From the NCBI GenBank assembly GCA_964618725.1, contig CAZUBK010000004.1, positions 15,485 through 79,484 of the forward strand: DNA of 64,000 nt, given 5' to 3'. Position 1 is the first letter of the stretch. The number at the start of each line of letters is the position of its first letter. The position numbers and the translations under genes are program-made. The notes beneath the pieces were generated by a model. It did no database searches and had not been told where the DNA came from. It worked only from the letters and a program-made list of their open reading frames with translations. Positions 7,877 to 63,598 of this stretch are shown here, in pieces. Source of the stretch: an uncultured Pseudomonadales bacterium. Lineage in GTDB: Bacteria; Patescibacteriota; Microgenomatia; UBA1400; Chazhemtobacteraceae.

Positions 7877-8479
7877 CTATACCAACTTAATCGCCCCCTC
7901 TGAAATCAATAGATCCGTCCCCGGCGTCCCTGGTATCGCCAGCACATCCCGCCCCATATCTGCCGCATAATTGGCCGAGGCCATACTTCCCGATCTTACT
8001 TCTGCCTCTATCACCACCAATGCCTCACTCATCCCCACCATTATTCTATTTCTCTCCAAAAAAAATCGCCGCTGCGGTCTTACTCCCATCGGAAACTCGC
8101 TCACCAATGCTCCACCTCGCGCGACTATTTTCTCCGCTAATTTCTCATGTTCCGCTGGATATACCATATCTAAACCGTGCGCTAATACAGCAATCGTTTT
8201 TCCCCCATATTCTAGTGCCGCTTCATGTGCCATCTTATCTATCCCCCTCGCCAACCCAGAAACAATAATCTTCTTCATCCCTACCAACTCCTTCACTACT
8301 TCTTTCACTTTCGTGAGTGCTAACTGACTCATCTTCCGACTCCCAATTACCGCCACCATTGATTGCTGCAAAACGTCCGTTTTCCCCAATACATACAAAC
8401 ACTTAGGGCAACCCTTCACCGGTCTTAGCAACCTCGGATATTCCAAGTCGCCTGGATGAATCTTCATCACCTCGCTCAT
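7877..8479 (-). CDS. dprA: DNA processing protein DprA/Smf, short form
   Basis: DprA Rossmann-like core (VIGSRKMS...GLARGIDKMAHEAAL). The track ORF begins with TTG at 8482; the ATG at 8479 is more likely. Confidence 0.7.
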   Translation of the reverse strand: MSEVMKIHPGDLEYPRLLRPVKGCPKCLYVLGKTDVLQQSMVAVIGSRKMSQLALTKVKEVVKELVGMKKIIVSGLARGIDKMAHEAALEYGGKTIAVLAHGLDMVYPAEHEKLAEKIVARGGALVSEFPMGVRPQRRFFLERNRIMVGMSEALVVIEAEVRSGSMASANYAADMGRDVLAIPGTPGTDLLISEGAIKLV

Positions 8480-31227: not shown

Positions 31228-31300
31228 GCCGAGATAGCTCAGTTGGCAGAGCACAATATTGGTAATATTGAGGTCCTGGGTTCGATTCCCAGTCTCGGCT
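31228..31300 (+). tRNA. tRNA-Thr (anticodon GGU)
   Basis: GCCGAGA acceptor, GCUC-AGUUGGCA-GAGC D-arm, CAAUA-UUGGUAA-UAUUG anticodon arm (GGU), CUGGG-UUCGAUU-CCCAG T-arm. TGGTAAAAT lies 15 nt upstream. Confidence 0.85.
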
Positions 31301-31312
31301 CCGACAGACTAG

Positions 31313-31436
31313 GGAAGCAAACCCTCGGGTTCAATATCCAGACCATAATGTGATTATGGGCGCAGATATAAGAGGAAGCACAGGACAACATCACAATATG
31401 CATTAGTATATTGTGAGTAAGGACGAGCAAGCTCTT
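31313..31436 (+). ncRNA. conserved structured element, copy 1 (family also at 62976-63095); tRNA-linked; function unknown
   Basis: Immediately 3' of tRNA-Thr(GGU). Hairpin CCATAAT-gtg-ATTATGG, then conserved GCGCAGATATAAGAGGAAGCACAGGACA, a second 8-bp hairpin, and a conserved ...GACGAGCAAGCT tail. Copy 2 carries compensatory changes in hairpin 1. Confidence 0.5.
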
Positions 31437-31454
31437 ATTCCCAGTCTCGGCTCC
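31437..31454 (+). repeat. 18-nt direct duplicate of the tRNA-Thr(GGU) 3' end (ATTCCCAGTCTCGGCTCC)
   Basis: Identical to 31285-31302 inside the tRNA. The two copies bracket the 134-bp structured element. Confidence 0.8.
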
Positions 31455-32642: not shown

Positions 32643-34358
32643 ATGACCAACTCCATTTCCACTCCACCCACGATATCTCTACCAGATCACATCACCAGCC
32701 AACCCGACTCACTCGAAGAAATCCTTCTTAAAGGCAGTTATGTCTCAGAGGCCGACCTAAAGAAAGCCGTCGAATATCTCAAGAAAAACAAATCTACCCT
32801 TGAAGACTACCTCCTTAACCAAGGACTTCTCACTCCCGACCTACTCGGACAAGCCATGGCCGAGACTCACTCTCTCCCCTACGCCGACCTCAACTCAAAA
32901 ATTCCCACCAAAGAGCAAGTTCTCAAACTCCCTAAAGAAATAGCCATCAGTAATCGACTAATTCTCTTTGAAGAAAATGACAATGCAATCGTCTTCACCA
33001 CTGACAAACCGGAAGTCGTTAATAATCTCACTCCCCAACTCTCTACCCTCTTTCCCAACAAAAAGATTAGTTTTGCCTACTCCCTTGGGGGAGACATCGA
33101 CCACTGTCTGGAATTCTATAAACAACCTCTTAGTGGCCGATTCGAAACCATCCTTACCTCACCCAACAAGATTGCTCCGCAACTAGTGACAGAGATCATC
33201 AAAGACGCCCTTAGTGAAAAGGCCTCCGATATCCACTTCGATCCCCAAGATAAACAAGTCGTTATTCGCCTTAGAATCGACGGTCAACTGCGAAACATCG
33301 GCCAAATCGATCGCATCCTTTACGAAAATGTTCTTAACCATATCAAGATCCTAAGCCACCTCCGTATTGATGAGCACTTCTCTGCTCAAGACGGCGCCAT
33401 GCGCTTCCCCAAGGACGACAGTTTCATCGACATGCGAATCTCCATTGCCCCTACCATTGATGGTGAGAAAGTCGCCATCCGTCTATTAGCCGAATACATC
33501 AAAGGTTTTGGCTACGCCGATCTAGGCATCTCCACCACTCACCAGGAGATCCTTACCAAAGCTATCAAACAGCCCTTTGGCATGATTCTTGTCACTGGAC
33601 CCACCGGTTCCGGCAAAACCACCACTCTCTATTCCCTACTCAAGACTCTCAATACTTCCGAGACTAATATTACTACTATCGAAGACCCTGTTGAATACAA
33701 AATTCTTGGGGTCAATCAAATCCAGGTCAATCCCCTCACCAATCTCACCTTTGCCAAAGGCCTAAAGAGCATTGTCCGCCAAGACCCCAATGTTATCCTT
33801 GTCGGCGAGATACGAGATCTTGAGACCGCCGAGATTGCCATCAATGCCGCTCTAACTGGTCACCTTCTTCTCTCCACTTTCCATGCCAATGATGCTGCTA
33901 CCAGTATTCCCAGACTCCTTGATATGGGTGCCGAACCCTTTCTTCTCGCCTCCACCCTCAACTTAATCATCGCCCAACGTCTCGTCAGACGCCTCTGCAA
34001 CAACTGTCGTATCAGTTACCAGACTACCAATGCCAAGCTTGAAGCCACTTTCCCCCAAGCCCAACATTACTTCCCAAACAAGGGCACCACCCTTTACCAA
34101 GCCAAAGGCTGTGACAACTGTGGTGGTACCGGCTTCAAAGGCCGCACCGCCATCTTCGAGTTCCTCAAAATCACTCCTAAGCTCGAAGAAATCATCCTGA
34201 CTCGCCCCTCAACCCAAGTGATCCATAAACAAGCCCTCATCGATGGTTCGAAATCACTTTTTGAAGACGGCCTTGAAAAAGTACAAACCGGCATCACCAC
34301 CATCGAAGAATTACTTAGAGTTGCTATTCCGCCCAGCAATGGAAAACCAAAATCCTAA
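32643..34358 (+). CDS. pilB: type IV pilus assembly ATPase PilB (GspE family)
   Basis: 571 aa. N-terminal GSPII_E N-domain, Walker A VTGPTGSGKTTTL, and a C-terminal tetracysteine motif. Confidence 0.85.
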   Translation: MTNSISTPPTISLPDHITSQPDSLEEILLKGSYVSEADLKKAVEYLKKNKSTLEDYLLNQGLLTPDLLGQAMAETHSLPYADLNSKIPTKEQVLKLPKEIAISNRLILFEENDNAIVFTTDKPEVVNNLTPQLSTLFPNKKISFAYSLGGDIDHCLEFYKQPLSGRFETILTSPNKIAPQLVTEIIKDALSEKASDIHFDPQDKQVVIRLRIDGQLRNIGQIDRILYENVLNHIKILSHLRIDEHFSAQDGAMRFPKDDSFIDMRISIAPTIDGEKVAIRLLAEYIKGFGYADLGISTTHQEILTKAIKQPFGMILVTGPTGSGKTTTLYSLLKTLNTSETNITTIEDPVEYKILGVNQIQVNPLTNLTFAKGLKSIVRQDPNVILVGEIRDLETAEIAINAALTGHLLLSTFHANDAATSIPRLLDMGAEPFLLASTLNLIIAQRLVRRLCNNCRISYQTTNAKLEATFPQAQHYFPNKGTTLYQAKGCDNCGGTGFKGRTAIFEFLKITPKLEEIILTRPSTQVIHKQALIDGSKSLFEDGLEKVQTGITTIEELLRVAIPPSNGKPKS

Positions 34359-35739
34359 TCCACCCCAGAAGACTAATAAAAAAAAACTCGGCCCCTTCTC
34401 CACCCTTGGCATTGGTGGTGATAAGGAGTTCTTTATCGAAAATCTCAGTCTCCTTGTCTCATCTGGAACTGACACCATTAGTGCTCTCAAATCACTCCAG
34501 CAAGAGGTCAAGACCAAAGGCATGAAAAAAGTCATAGGATTAATACTGGAAGACGTCCAATCAGGCGAGTCTCTCTCAAATGCCATCCAAAATACCCACA
34601 TCTTCTCCGTCAATGTAACCTCATTGATTTCAGTCGGCGAACAATCCGGCCGACTATCAGAAAATCTTAAAGTCATCGCTAACCAAGAACGAAAGGAAAA
34701 ATCCTTCCGCTCCAAAATCTCTTCTGCCATGCTCTATCCCGCCTTCGTCATCTGCCTCACCTTCATTGTCGGCATTGCCATCACTTGGTTCATTCTTCCT
34801 CGTCTTGCTACTGTCTTCAGTCAACTCAAGATAGAACTCCCCCTCATTACCAGGATTCTCATTCAATCAGGCAACTTCTTAAATCAATACGGCCTGATTT
34901 TTCTTCCTCTCTTCTTCTTCATTGCCGCTCTCCTCATCTACTTTCTCTTTATCTTTAATAAGACCAAGTTTATCGGCCAGTCTCTCATCTTCCACCTCAC
35001 AGGTATTAATAGCTTGGTAAAAAACATCGAGATTGCTCGTTTCGGTACCATCGTAAGCGGTCTCCTTAATGCCGGCGTCCCCATGACTACTTCACTTAAC
35101 AGCGCTGCTCAAACCGCCTCCTTCTATCAGTACCAGCGCCTCTTTCATTTCCTTGAAACCAAGATCCAAGAAGGCGACTCTTTTCAACAAAGCTTTAGCG
35201 CCTATAAAAGATCTGAAAAACTTATCCCCCTCCCCATCCAACAAATGATCTTCGCCGCGGAGCAGTCAGGCAATCTTGCCACCACATTCAGCAAAATTGG
35301 CGAGGTCTATGAGGAACGCTCAGACACCTCCGCCAAGAATCTCGCCGTTATTCTCGAACCGATTCTCCTCGTCATTGTCTGGCTTGGCGTTGTTGCCGTC
35401 GCCATCGCCGTCATCCTCCCCATTTACAGCCTACTGGGTGGAATAAACAATAATCCCGCTACTCCCCCCACTTCTAACACTCAAGAAGTCGTCCCTCTCA
35501 ACACTCCCACCCCAACACCCGTATCTCTCCAACAACTCGAGGTCCAAGATACTGGAATCGGCTATTTGAATGTCAGACAGCTTCCCTCTACCGACTCATC
35601 CATTATCACCCGTGCCTTGCCAGGAGAAAGCTACACATATCTTCGTCAAGACGGCGAGTGGTACAAAATTATTCTCACTGATCCATCGCTTAGTACTCAA
35701 TCAGGCTGGGTCAATGGCGCCTATGTTCTACCTAAATAA
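34339..35739 (+). CDS. pilC: type IV pilus platform protein PilC (GspF family) with a C-terminal SH3b-like domain
   Basis: Two GspF repeats with TM helices, then a Pro/Thr-rich linker, then GYLNVRQLPSTDSSIITRALPGESYTYLRQDGEWYKIIL...GWVNGAYV (bacterial SH3-like). The start is moved to ATG 34339. Confidence 0.8.
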   Translation: MENQNPNPPQKTNKKKLGPFSTLGIGGDKEFFIENLSLLVSSGTDTISALKSLQQEVKTKGMKKVIGLILEDVQSGESLSNAIQNTHIFSVNVTSLISVGEQSGRLSENLKVIANQERKEKSFRSKISSAMLYPAFVICLTFIVGIAITWFILPRLATVFSQLKIELPLITRILIQSGNFLNQYGLIFLPLFFFIAALLIYFLFIFNKTKFIGQSLIFHLTGINSLVKNIEIARFGTIVSGLLNAGVPMTTSLNSAAQTASFYQYQRLFHFLETKIQEGDSFQQSFSAYKRSEKLIPLPIQQMIFAAEQSGNLATTFSKIGEVYEERSDTSAKNLAVILEPILLVIVWLGVVAVAIAVILPIYSLLGGINNNPATPPTSNTQEVVPLNTPTPTPVSLQQLEVQDTGIGYLNVRQLPSTDSSIITRALPGESYTYLRQDGEWYKIILTDPSLSTQSGWVNGAYVLPK

Positions 35740-61178: not shown

Positions 61179-61400
61179 ATGACTTCTGATAAGCAAACTC
61201 CAAAAAAGCGGGCAGGCTCATATATTCTTGCTTTTTTCCATGCAGTTAAGGTAGAATTAGCTTTGACAAATTGGCCAACCCGTCAAGAGACGACTAGGCT
61301 GACTCTTGTCATCATCATCGCCACCGCTCTGATTGGTATGTACATCGGCGGCCTTGACCTTATATTTACTAATCTATTAACCAAGCTACTCACCAAATAA
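61179..61400 (+). CDS. secE: preprotein translocase subunit SecE
   Basis: 73 aa. KVELALTNWPTRQETTRLTLVIIIATALIGMYIGGLDLIF is the SecE TM-helix signature. nusG follows. Confidence 0.65.
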   Translation: MTSDKQTPKKRAGSYILAFFHAVKVELALTNWPTRQETTRLTLVIIIATALIGMYIGGLDLIFTNLLTKLLTK

Positions 61401-61421
61401 CCCGTCTCTAGCTAAAGTCAC

Positions 61422-62063
61422 ATGGCTAAAAAAACTCAAACCGATCCCGTTGTAGAAGAAACCCAAATCGTCAATAGTGATGATATTCAAAACGTAACTG
61501 ATTCCGATAATCATATCATCATCTCCGATACACCCAATCCCCGCTCCCATTGGTATGTCGTCCACACTTATGCTGCTCAAGAAAGCCGCACCGCGCATAC
61601 CCTAAAACAAAAAGTCGAAACACTCGGTCTGACTGAGTTTGTTAAAGAGATCCTCATCCCCACCCAAGAAAAAATCAAAATTGCCAAAGGCCGCAAATCT
61701 ACAATCAAAGAGAAGATCTTCCCCGGCTATCTACTTCTTCGCATGGAAGTCACTGATACCTCTTGGCTGGCTGTTCGTACTACTCAAGGAGTAACTGGTT
61801 TCGTTGGTATTGGCAACAAACCTACTCGTCTGCCCGATTCCGAAGTCGAAGCCATTAAACAGTTCATCGTCCAAAAAGCTCCCAAGTTCCAATCCACTTT
61901 TACTGTAGGAGAAGCCGTCAAGATCGTCGAAGGCCCCTTTGCGGATATGTTAGGTAGCGTCAACAAACTCGACGAAGACAAGGGTAAAATCACCGTTCTC
62001 GTCTCCATGTTCGGTCGGGAGATCCCCGTCGAGCTCGACTTCCTCCAGGTCGCAAAAATTTAG
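61422..62063 (+). CDS. nusG: transcription termination/antitermination factor NusG
   Basis: NGN domain (HWYVVHTYAAQE) and C-terminal KOW (GEAVKIVEGPFADMLGSVNKLD). Confidence 0.8.
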   Translation: MAKKTQTDPVVEETQIVNSDDIQNVTDSDNHIIISDTPNPRSHWYVVHTYAAQESRTAHTLKQKVETLGLTEFVKEILIPTQEKIKIAKGRKSTIKEKIFPGYLLLRMEVTDTSWLAVRTTQGVTGFVGIGNKPTRLPDSEVEAIKQFIVQKAPKFQSTFTVGEAVKIVEGPFADMLGSVNKLDEDKGKITVLVSMFGREIPVELDFLQVAKI

Positions 62064-62073
62064 CCAATTTTTA

Positions 62074-62098
62074 AGATCCTGAGCTTCAGCGAATGGGT
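62074..62098 (+). repeat. solo unit of the GATC repeat family (AGATCCTGAGCTTCAGCGAATGGGT)
   Basis: Matches the units of the arrays at 10924-11100 and 41062-41171. It lies immediately after the nusG stop. Confidence 0.8.
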
Positions 62099-62142
62099 GG
62101 CGAAAGTCGTGGTACAATGCGTCCACCTACAGGAGGTGAACC

Positions 62143-62445
62143 TTGTCAGACCAAGAAAACGAAAACAAAAAGGGTAATCAACTACCCGAGGTCGAAATCC
62201 TTACAGGATCGATCGACTACATCCAAAACGAAAGCGATCGCCGTCTTTGTCCCAACTCCCCAATTCGCCTACGCCGTCTTCAACTCAAGCAAGAATATGA
62301 ACAACAACTGAGCAAGCTCCAAGAAGACTGCACCCACCCCCTGGCCTACCAAGTCTGGTCCTCCTGGTCCTTTATGGACCCCGACTACGACTCCGGTGAC
62401 CGCTATTGCCCCGAATGCGGCAAAAGCTACCACATCAATCCCTGA
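62143..62445 (+). CDS. small coiled-coil plus C-terminal zinc-ribbon protein; paralog of 47633..47845
   Basis: TTG start 5 nt after an AGGAGGTG RBS. TGGTACAAT extended -10 at 62109-62117. C-terminal ...CTHP...CPECGKSYH. Confidence 0.45.
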   Translation: MSDQENENKKGNQLPEVEILTGSIDYIQNESDRRLCPNSPIRLRRLQLKQEYEQQLSKLQEDCTHPLAYQVWSSWSFMDPDYDSGDRYCPECGKSYHINP

Positions 62446-62475
62446 AACCCCTTCACAACCAGCCATCCTCCCCGG

Positions 62476-62913
62476 ATGGCTTTTCCTTTCTTCCAATTTG
62501 CTACTATTAGTTCAATGTCCGACACTAAAACTACTCTTCTGGCCTCTCTTCCTCTCCTTTTCATCGTCACCACCCTTATCGCCGCCCTTATCATCCTTCC
62601 CAAAACTGATCTTGATATCCGCGACAAAGCTGCCGAACCAAGAATCAGCTCGCCTTCATCACTACTCCCTACTCCTACTCCCAATTTAGCTCCGGATTAT
62701 CAACTCGAACCAGAAACTGCTTGCACTGCCCTTTACGACCCTGTTTGTGGCATCGACAATCAAACGTACCCAAATGGATGCGAGGCCTTAAAGAAAGGTG
62801 TCAGAATCGCATACAACACAGCCTGCACTTCTCCTTCCAGTTCACGCCCCACCTTTTTCAATCGATCCGCCACTCCTACTCCTACTCTCTCCAATCTCCC
62901 CAGTGCCTATTAA
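62476..62913 (+). CDS. membrane-anchored Kazal-like domain protein (atypical four-Cys Kazal)
   Basis: N-terminal TM segment, then C-TALYDPV-C-GIDNQTY-PNG-C-x14-C. This matches Kazal C2-x7-C3-x6-Y-x3-C4...C6. C1 and C5, one disulfide pair, are absent. Confidence 0.55.
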   Translation: MAFPFFQFATISSMSDTKTTLLASLPLLFIVTTLIAALIILPKTDLDIRDKAAEPRISSPSSLLPTPTPNLAPDYQLEPETACTALYDPVCGIDNQTYPNGCEALKKGVRIAYNTACTSPSSSRPTFFNRSATPTPTLSNLPSAY

Positions 62914-62975
62914 ACGGTTCCCTTTTTACCCCTTGTGTGATACAATTTCCCTACCACGATGGCTTAGGCCTTTGT

Positions 62976-63095
62976 GGAAGCGCGAACCCAAGTGCGATAT
63001 CAAGACGATAACATAGTTATCGGCGTAGATATAACAGGAAGCACAGGCCATTCATTTCAATAATAAATATTATTGAAAGTCTGCCGAGCAAGCTG
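62976..63095 (+). ncRNA. conserved structured element, copy 2, in the rplK 5' leader (family also at 31313-31436)
   Basis: GGAAGC..AACCC..GATATCAAGAC, hairpin CGATAAC-ata-GTTATCG, GCGTAGATATAACAGGAAGCACAGGCCA, a second hairpin TTCAATAATA..TATTATTGAA, then ..GCCGAGCAAGCT. About 78 nt upstream of the rplK ATG. A TGTGATACAAT extended -10 lies near 62935. Confidence 0.5.
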
Positions 63096-63172
63096 TTAAA
63101 TCATTTTTCTTTTCCTAAATTCTTGGTACGCGCCAACTAAAGATCCATCGGATCTTTCATTTACGTAGACAC

Positions 63173-63598
63173 ATGGCTGCAAAAAAAATCAAAGTCATTC
63201 TCAAACTTAATCTTCAAGCTGGTGCCGCTACTCCAGCCCCTCCCACCGGACCAGCGTTAGGTCAACACGGTGTTCCCATCATGGACTTCGTCAACAAATA
63301 TAACGAAGCCACCAAGGATCTTCGCGGTCAAGTCGTCCCCGCTGTCGTCACTATCTACGAAGACAGATCGTTTACTTTTGTTACCAAACTCGCCCCTGTA
63401 TCAGAGCTAATCAAACAAAAGTTAGGTCTCAAAAAAGGTGCTTCTAACGTCAAAAAAGACGTTGCCGGCACCCTTACTATGGACGCCGTTAAAGAGATTG
63501 CCCAAAGCAAACTCGACGATACCAATGCCTCATCCCTCGACTCAGCCATTAAAATGGTCTTGGGTACCGCTCGCTCAATGGGAATTAGAATTCAATAA
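63173..63598 (+). CDS. rplK: 50S ribosomal protein L11
   Basis: MAAKKIKVILKLNLQAGAATPAPPTGPALGQHGVPIMDFVNKYNEAT is the L11 signature. Confidence 0.85.
   Translation: MAAKKIKVILKLNLQAGAATPAPPTGPALGQHGVPIMDFVNKYNEATKDLRGQVVPAVVTIYEDRSFTFVTKLAPVSELIKQKLGLKKGASNVKKDVAGTLTMDAVKEIAQSKLDDTNASSLDSAIKMVLGTARSMGIRIQ

Follow-up and report, generated by a model that had tools for sequence, protein, structure and literature searches.

A stretch of 64,000 nucleotides (nt) from an uncultured bacterium (contig CAZUBK010000004.1, positions 15,485 to 79,484 of the forward strand; hereafter the window) carries one and the same non-coding motif of about 100 nt at two distant places, downstream of a tRNA-Thr(GGU) gene and in the leader of the ribosomal-protein gene rplK. 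What such a motif is doing at two so different loci is the question addressed here. An earlier note, made from the letters of the window alone, had recognized a hairpin altered in step on both arms and proposed either a conserved structured RNA or a protein-bound DNA structure. Comparison of the window with related contig loci (labelled L018, L103, L206 and so on) indicates that the repeat behaves as mobile DNA and not as a gene-linked or regulatory RNA; since both window copies are insertion sites, their likeness is no evidence of a shared regulatory function or of common regulation. That we are dealing with a selfish mobile DNA repeat, by whatever mechanism it moves, is considered highly probable. 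By analogy, and with moderate confidence, we favor a non-autonomous element that would move as folded single-stranded DNA, by a logic similar to that of IS200/IS605 elements or REP repeats. The two copies and their parts are the following.

31335..31437, + strand: copy 1 of the repeat, TA...TA, 103 nt, TATCCAGACC...GAGCAAGCTCTTA; 65.7 bits with the covariance model of domain 2; missing at the orthologous site of L206.
31334..31369, + strand: domain 1 of copy 1, with stem P1 (ATATC/GATAT) around an internal loop and hairpin 1, CCATAAT-GTG-ATTATGG (31343-31359); based on the fold and on covariation in the family.
31370..31436, + strand: domain 2 of copy 1, with stem P2 (AAGAG/CTCTT), the loops GAAGCACAGG (31375-31384) and CGAGCAAG (31424-31431), and hairpin 2 (31392-31415); based on the fold, covariation and the covariance model.
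62998..63098, + strand: copy 2 of the repeat, TA...TA, 101 nt, in the rplK 5' leader between GCGA and AATC; 73.7 bits; placed by alignment with L199.
62997..63032, + strand: domain 1 of copy 2, with P1 (ATATC/GATAT) and hairpin 1, CGATAAC-ATA-GTTATCG (63006-63022).
63033..63097, + strand: domain 2 of copy 2, with P2 (AACAG/CTGTT, compensated relative to copy 1), the loops GAAGCACAGG (63038-63047) and CGAGCAAG (63085-63092), and hairpin 2 (63055-63078).

Both loci contain the common motif as it was first described. The exact 21-nt core AGATATAANAGGAAGCACAGG occurs in the window only at 31364 and 63027, where 0.01 occurrences would be expected by chance, and the covariance model of domain 2 finds in the window only the two copies, at the scores listed above, the next match reaching 15 bits. 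The compensatory changes in hairpin 1 were confirmed, two positions being altered on both arms (CCATAAT/ATTATGG in copy 1, CGATAAC/GTTATCG in copy 2), and the stem enclosing hairpin 2 turned out to be compensated as well (AAGAG/CTCTT in copy 1, AACAG/CTGTT in copy 2). Compared with dinucleotide shuffles, the + strand folds with z = -4.4 for copy 1 and z = -2.9 for copy 2. The limits had to be redrawn: homology extends from ~31334 to 31437 in copy 1 and from ~62997 to 63098 in copy 2. The intervals proposed initially, 31313-31436 and 62976-63095, hold for the motif but not for their first ~21 nt (a shared GGAAGC...), whose similarity between the loci is not significant and which in copy 2 are native rplK leader, also present in relatives; a shared 5' extension (GGAAGC plus hairpin) was rejected as a part of the element on the same grounds. 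Contrary to the initial description, copy 1 is not fused to the 3' end of tRNA-Thr(GGU), as 32 nt separate the two, and the copy is directly followed by 18 nt that repeat the 3' end of the tRNA.

To delimit the family, a search pattern consisting of the two conserved loops with a variable gap was run on one genome per species and then on metagenomes. The first scan returned mostly GC-rich chance matches and 15 true full-motif matches in genome contigs, which belong to Collierbacteria metagenome-assembled genomes (MAGs) and other MAGs with 38-48% GC; after the metagenome scan, 83 distinct contexts were available. The domain 2 covariance model gave 105 matches in 683 kb of family loci, often two per contig of at most 14 kb, and the hosts are AT-rich Collierbacteria- or Microgenomates-like contigs, often with several copies per contig. 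In one MAG, identical ~200-nt copies are situated at several contig ends; these are recent copies that break the assembly. The earlier note had accepted that its claim would fall if no more copies and no covariation were seen in relatives, and the family is both large and covarying. As far as sampled, it is confined to Microgenomates (Collierbacteria-like) bacteria of the candidate phyla radiation (CPR), and the window genome is itself Microgenomates or Collierbacteria-like, with the best named L11 homologues at 78% identity. The repeat is also carried by contigs labelled Pseudomonadales or Spirochaetia (L015, L022, L031, L032, L052, L055, L074 and L075; 38-45% GC), the tRNA and transfer-messenger RNA (tmRNA) contexts of which are Collierbacteria-like; these labels are probably wrong. 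Phage and plasmid collections yielded no match, one pattern match in a viral contig being GC-rich and due to chance. In agreement with the first impression that the motif belongs to no named family, Rfam 15 passed only tRNAs in the window, with no relevant match at E up to 10 over either copy, and gave no match in six related loci. Literature searches found no description of the repeat, and the family is an undescribed bacterial interspersed structured repeat of a known general kind.

Mobility is demonstrated by pairs of filled and empty sites. In a larger repeated region of Collierbacteria, the filled loci L177, L102 and L181 differ from the empty loci L138, L108 and L072, where CATCT[T/A]TATGTTC is uninterrupted, by exactly the unit, and L018 is filled where L103 is empty. 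Four comparisons, intact tRNA sequences among them, show one TA in the empty state. No counterpart of copy 2 exists in the rplK leaders of the nearest relatives (L11 78-81% identical), and the window leader without 62998-63098 aligns with L199 straight through the junction of CAAGYGCGA and AATC. At the site of copy 1, L206 (response regulator 87% identical) passes from tRNA-Thr(GGU) directly into the native spacer, with no tRNA fragment, and the window has an extra 152 nt composed of the 32-nt spacer, the element and the 18-nt repeat of the tRNA 3' end. Copies occur in tandem in places, and some are decayed, with the 5' arm of P1 lost by small deletions, which indicates that the element can be lost harmlessly. 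Separately, in a second close relative, L207, the response regulator is 86% identical and the sequence upstream (1-268) is wholly different, with no tRNA, so the intergenic region before this gene appears to be often rearranged.

TA at both junctions in nearly all copies, and a single TA remaining in four empty sites or intact tRNA sequences, could be the work of a classical miniature element that an IS630/Tc1-mariner-type DDE transposase mobilizes in double-stranded form, duplicating a TA target, and the repeat is likewise small, multi-copy (at least 83 contexts), intergenic and insertion-polymorphic. Correia elements of Neisseria and ERIC/IRU elements of enterobacteria are TA-duplicating miniature inverted-repeat transposable elements (MITEs) of ~100-150 nt, non-coding, intergenic, present in many copies and often found in mRNA leaders. 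The repeat resembles them in size, intergenic location, copy number, insertion polymorphism, TA at both junctions and frequent co-transcription in leaders; however, they form one long hairpin from terminal inverted repeats, whereas the repeat has two hairpins, no inverted termini and conserved internal loops. Its ends, TATTCAAGC... and ...GAGCAAGCTCT, have no inverted relationship, sharing only TA and a direct CAAGC. The strong strand-composition polarity described below would be unexpected for DDE elements, neither the window nor the surroundings of the copies showed a DDE transposase, and the inferred empty sites of both window copies contain no TA. The likeness to Correia and ERIC elements is superficial, and a DDE-driven MITE is an unlikely explanation.

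The anatomy of the mobile unit is well defined across the family. It is ~100-112 nt long and TA-bounded, running from TA-TWWTC... to ...GAGCAAGCTCT-TA, and a single strand of it folds as two adjacent imperfect hairpins, domains 1 and 2. Domain 1 is composed of P1 (5-7 base pairs, bp), an internal loop and hairpin 1, often with a C-GAA-G triloop; the internal loop falls into two classes, (C)AAGC/GCG and CAGAC/GGCGCA, and both window copies belong to the second. Domain 2 is composed of P2 (UAAGAG/CUCUUA), the loops GAAGCRCAGG and CGAGCAAG with a GC/GC mini-helix and, inward of this helix, a G-C pair, tandem G.A/A.G pairs, a covarying 2-bp helix (AU/AU, GU/AC, AC/GU or AA/UU) and hairpin 2. P1 abuts P2, so that the unit's two ends, with the TA dinucleotides that flank them, come to lie next to each other, and the central TA is able to pair with either flanking TA. 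Among 67 distinct second domains, 12 of 23 pairs are changed on both sides (120 cells), a result matched in 0 of 500 shuffles, with slid controls ~40% paired. P1 occurs as ATATC/GATAT, ATAAC/GTTAT, ATAGC/GCTAT, ATACC/GGTAT, ATATTC/GAATAT, ATTTCC/GGAAAT and other variants, and one of its positions shows all four Watson-Crick pairs across the family. The conservation of the loops is partly imposed, since they were fixed in the search pattern; diverged copies recovered by other means retain GGAARCGCAG and CGAGCAAGC.

Strong covariation, conserved internal loops and a covarying 2-bp helix beside tandem G.A pairs are equally familiar from structured RNAs, and the repeat could accordingly be read as a multi-copy small RNA gene or as a leader or processing element that acts in cis and is co-transcribed with tRNAs and mRNAs. 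On the + strand, shuffled sequences fold less well than the window copies, as given above; copy 1 follows a tRNA, and copy 2, within the 5' untranslated region (UTR) of rplK, recalls the L1-binding rplK-rplA leader and riboswitch-type RNAs, with which the repeat shares a covarying structure and conserved loops. The composition of the stems argues otherwise. Functional RNAs normally show several percent G-U in covarying stems, whereas the hairpin stems of the repeat contain 1195 Watson-Crick pairs, 1 G.T and 1 A.C, and G-U does not exceed 1% in the aligned second domain. Both strands fold nearly alike, the mean advantage of the + strand being only 1.4 kcal/mol. Such strict complementarity in freely varying stems is the pattern of palindromic DNA repeats. 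An asymmetry between G-U and A-C, tried as a test for the transcribed strand, is uninformative because the stems are almost purely Watson-Crick.

The genomic context points in the same direction as the stems. Intergenic copies account for 76 of 82; of the downstream genes, 38 share the strand of the repeat and 32 lie on the other one, and within co-directional gene pairs the repeat is sense in 18 and antisense in 19. No recurrent neighboring protein family was found among the repeat contexts. The flanks of the copies are unrelated to each other, so there is no common upstream promoter, and promoter and terminator scans called none at either window copy. Orientation is thus random with respect to neighboring genes and follows strand composition instead; the element is missing from orthologous leaders, including the rplK leaders of relatives, is found in any context and orientation, exists in degraded copies and, unlike riboswitches and ribosomal-protein leaders, has no Rfam family, with no match at E up to 10. 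We therefore retain the structural half of the earlier claim (12 of 23 pairs, 0 of 500 shuffles) and give up its reading as a conserved functional or cis-regulatory RNA, given the orientation, the absence in orthologues, the scarcity of G-U and the silence of Rfam; a structured RNA is now quite improbable. The alternative named with it, a protein-bound DNA structure, comes close to the best explanation, namely the termini of a mobile repeat. Small ribozymes (hairpin, hammerhead, twister, pistol, hatchet), SRP RNA, group II domain V, retron and bridge/seek RNAs were also weighed and set aside, as their motifs do not fit, Rfam is silent and the loops of the repeat are conserved, not programmable.

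Strand composition is the feature that the orientation of the copies does follow. In 47 of 60 loci the + strand of the element has a negative GC skew over the flanking 10 kb, i.e., it is the C-rich strand; with related flanks collapsed, this holds for 40 of 48 independent sites (p=3e-6), and the exceptions come mostly from loci with almost no skew. The bias is independent of the strand of nearby genes; tRNA genes at the same loci are split 21:17 and coding sequence 54:46. The + strand of the window, which bears both copies, has a GC skew of -0.21 to -0.38 over all 64 kb and fits the rule. As the repeat ignores genes and follows strand asymmetry, its polarity points to a strand-specific process coupled to replication. 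The orientation of tRNA genes was tried as an indicator of the leading strand and, at 21:17, does not settle it. The skew is also unusual in itself: related contigs have a median absolute value of 0.2, and neither genes nor tRNAs show a corresponding orientation bias; the skew of the window is far above usual bacterial values.

Very strong polarity and conserved loops would also be expected of a replication-polar DNA signal useful to the host, such as a single-strand initiation or primosome-assembly hairpin or a fork-directed architecture, that has spread through the genome, and two hairpins with GAA triloops would resemble the single-strand origins of phages. However, close relatives differ in the presence of the repeat, and copies decay, lie in tandem and sit in tRNA fragments, so that a selfish element fits better than a host signal, which we regard as highly improbable.

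An enrichment at tRNA genes was also demonstrated. Seventeen of the 83 contexts are located at most 130 nt from a tRNA gene, and 13 of these 17 are antisense to it; the chance level is a few percent, as a rough estimate that assumes a genome of ~1 Mb with ~45 tRNA genes. About ten of the tRNA-adjacent copies, copy 1 included, lie in, or adjoin, a duplicated piece of the tRNA concerned, with the element at a TA within a second, partial or complete, tRNA copy next to an intact one. The insertion points are listed below, followed by the arrangement around copy 1.

tRNA-Pro, position 7/8: L022, L150 and L058.
tRNA-Pro, D-loop: L123.
tRNA-Arg, D-loop: L186 and L187 (twice in L187).
tRNA-Ala: L164.
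tRNA-Thr, 3' fragment, T-loop region: window copy 1.
31228..31302, + strand: intact tRNA-Thr(GGU); its last 18 nt (31285-31302, ATTCCCAGTCTCGGCTCC) are the left direct repeat.
31303..31334, + strand: 32-nt spacer between the tRNA and copy 1, within the 152-nt segment missing in L206.
31437..31454, + strand: right direct repeat, a second tRNA-Thr 3' end (T-loop A58 to CC), abutting copy 1 and running into the native response-regulator spacer.

Copy 1 is an insertion into a duplicated 3' end of tRNA-Thr. Its 32-nt spacer was considered as a T-arm remnant of the tRNA or as transduced rplK leader, and both were rejected, the similarity not being significant. Across the family, the repeated tRNA segments are 17-86 nt long, and L124 is a non-tRNA case with the same pattern. 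Direct repeats of tRNA 3' ends comprise 18 nt from the T-loop (window copy 1 and L072) or 45 nt from the anticodon loop (L186/L187), the tmRNA 3' end is duplicated in L052, and the tRNA-flanked inserts are 130-230 bp long and contain no open reading frame (ORF). Given that L206 has no tRNA fragment at all, duplication and element came together or in quick succession; template-switch fork restart, unequal sister-chromosome exchange, or selection for an intact essential copy are possible causes of the duplication. In L022 (1264-1538), L058 (6500-6900), L187, L123, L164 and L186, an intact tRNA gene (Pro, Arg or Ala) has one or two pseudo-copies of itself alongside, partial or complete, each split by the element at a TA; in L187 the order is 5' fragment with element, intact tRNA-Arg, and element with 3' fragment. 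The window also holds natural-competence-type genes, with coordinates for the group of 7880-8479 and 32643-35739: DprA (Pfam DNA_processg_A) and ORFs that, from their translations alone, we take to encode a type IV pilus ATPase and a platform protein. They would be relevant if incoming DNA contributes to rearrangements of tRNA loci.

Repeats of tRNA 3' ends that start in the T-loop (18 nt) or the anticodon loop (45 nt) are reminiscent of integrase attachment sites, and with the duplicated tmRNA end of L052 they suggest a small unit that integrates site-specifically, or a folded attC-like site, for which a tyrosine recombinase would use tRNA genes as attachment sites; integron attC arrays are known to be replication-strand polar as well (PMC5371416). 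At the tRNA and tmRNA sites used by genomic islands and prophages, too, a direct repeat of the tRNA 3' end flanks the insert and the tRNA remains intact. The repeat differs from these in that inserts of 130-230 bp come without an integrase, none being found nearby, and that several lie inside a second tRNA copy, which constitutes a tandem duplication and not an attL/attR pair. Moreover, most copies are located away from tRNA genes, filled and empty sites are clean in non-tRNA, TA-bounded DNA, the repeat lengths and the junctions in tRNA vary (position 7/8, D-loop, T-loop, 3' end), and the hairpin loops, 3-14 nt long across copies, are unlike recombinase core sites. Xer/dif and integron attC sites, brought to mind by the CATAA...TTATG arms, were rejected on these loop lengths and on the lack of an R-box consensus. 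The likeness to att-flanked inserts is superficial, and movement by a tyrosine recombinase is rather improbable.

Of the known systems, IS200/IS605-derived and REP-type repeats come closest. Elements of the IS200/IS605 family lack terminal inverted repeats and carry directly oriented subterminal hairpins; their cleavage sites are read by internal guide pairing and non-canonical pairs (PMC3201880). They show an orientation bias toward the lagging-strand template and target strongly transcribed rrn genes as well as stalled forks (PMC5027513), and related TnpA proteins act on REP sequences (PMC6006769). With IS200/IS605 ends, their non-autonomous derivatives (PATEs) and the REP/REPIN repeats, which are moved by RAYT (TnpA-REP) HUH enzymes, the repeat has in common the direct-orientation end hairpins without terminal inverted repeats, the conservation of structure above stem sequence, internal bases that pair with junction nucleotides, insertion beside a short A/T-rich motif, replication-strand polarity and an attraction to highly transcribed RNA genes. 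From this resemblance we infer the single-strand intermediate, the class of the enzyme and the reason for the preference for tRNA genes. The element would leave and enter the chromosome at the replication fork in the form of folded single-stranded DNA, with its hairpins and conserved loops serving as putative recognition sites of an enzyme acting in trans. Highly transcribed tRNA genes would be favored as targets, as forks may stall there, and an insertion in an essential tRNA would survive only beside a retained intact copy.

Several observations weigh against this single-strand mechanism. No transposase, integrase or HUH protein was detected among the 46 window ORFs scanned, no mobilizing enzyme was found near the copies in the window or the related contigs, and no autonomous version (domain 1 ... 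ORF ... domain 2) was found. The TA kept in four empty sites resembles a target duplication of 2 bp, a product foreign to IS200/IS605 elements, and the 17-86 nt tRNA repeats at the flanks are no known product of single-strand transposition; neither feature is shared with IS200/IS605 or REP. Compared with REP sequences, the repeat has far larger and less regular hairpins and lacks a GTAG-type head. The conserved loops and tandem G.A pairs would suit an RNA as well. Neither tRNA nor protein-gene orientation is strong enough to tell the leading strand, and should the lagging-strand template be the G-rich strand, as is usual in bacteria, the active strand would be the complement of the drawn fold and the polarity appears opposite to the IS608 rule. 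Finally, the repeat has no matching Y1/HUH gene: an IS200-like TnpA (L102/L103, L187) was considered and is probably not the partner, since the IS200-like copies in related contigs have other end hairpins. Against each known class, the repeat fails one defining test: a matching TnpA for IS200 and REP, terminal inverted repeats for MITEs, and an integrase for att inserts.

The IS200-like genes are worth describing in their own right. Y1 transposase genes are located in L103 (1900-2331, minus strand) and L187 (615-1016), with a Pfam Y1_Tnp match at E=5e-26 and a mutual identity of 54%. They are bounded by their own direct hairpins, CCCCGYAC...GTACGGGG, and lie a few hundred bases from repeat copies; a Y1 transposase gene near the repeat was also seen for L102 (L102/L103).

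A bolder variant of the single-strand reading can also be formulated, although we consider it doubtful: a hairpin-guided single-strand element might invade tRNA genes at forks with a built-in local duplication that leaves an intact tRNA, moved by an undescribed class of enzyme or partly self-guided by its loops, with the central TA pairing both junction TAs; or the repeat might be a structural DNA signal, replication-polar and used by the host.

Copy 2 is a passenger in the rplK 5' UTR, and its assignment to the rplK leader was correct from the outset. Two features upstream of it help to define this leader.

62938..62946, + strand: likely -10 element of the rplK promoter, TGATACAAT, of the extended -10 type; TGATAYAAT or TGTTATAAT is found at the same place in relatives.
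62976..62997, + strand: native rplK leader segment GGAAGCGCGAACCCAAGTGCGA, outside the repeat; homologous to leaders of relatives without the element.

If 62938-62946 is indeed the promoter -10, copy 2 would be transcribed within the rplK 5' UTR; the box was not called by the consensus promoter scan, which requires a -35 box. The rplK leaders of this lineage (window 62947-62997 and 63099-63172; L199 2850-3003) combine the extended -10 TGATAYAAT, a hairpin and a GG(G/A)AGCG...CAAGYGCGAAATC motif, which may be a native L1/L11 autoregulatory site, with copy 2 inserted inside. In the same part of the window (61179-63598), two extra genes are situated between secE-nusG and rplK, a small cysteine-rich ORF (62143-62445) and a gene for a protein with a Kazal-type protease-inhibitor domain (62476-62913); the Kazal gene adjoins nusG or rplK in relatives too.

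CPR bacteria have tiny, dense genomes that are thought to be poor in mobile elements, and a recently active structured repeat with no visible transposase is therefore unexpected in them, as are its strong strand polarity and its seat in duplicated tRNA fragments. The family offers a handle on DNA movement in these uncultured organisms, and its mobilizing enzyme, if found by co-occurrence, may represent a new system of single-strand DNA processing. It also partly explains assembly breaks, as contigs end in the repeat. Screens based on covariation could mistake it for a riboswitch or a small RNA, and it provides a worked example that compensatory changes alone do not prove RNA function.

A second non-coding repeated region, ~400 nt long (...GCTGTCGCATCT / TATGTTCGCCACAA...TCTCAATATATGGCTCAAATT...), is shared by many Collierbacteria-like contigs. 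Its GC-rich palindromes include CCTGCCTGCCGGCAGGCAGG; it has no Rfam match and occurs in L103 (1340-1860, minus strand), L138 (8700-9060), L108 (9730-10070), L072 (1100-1400) and other loci; the two-hairpin repeat lies within some of its copies.

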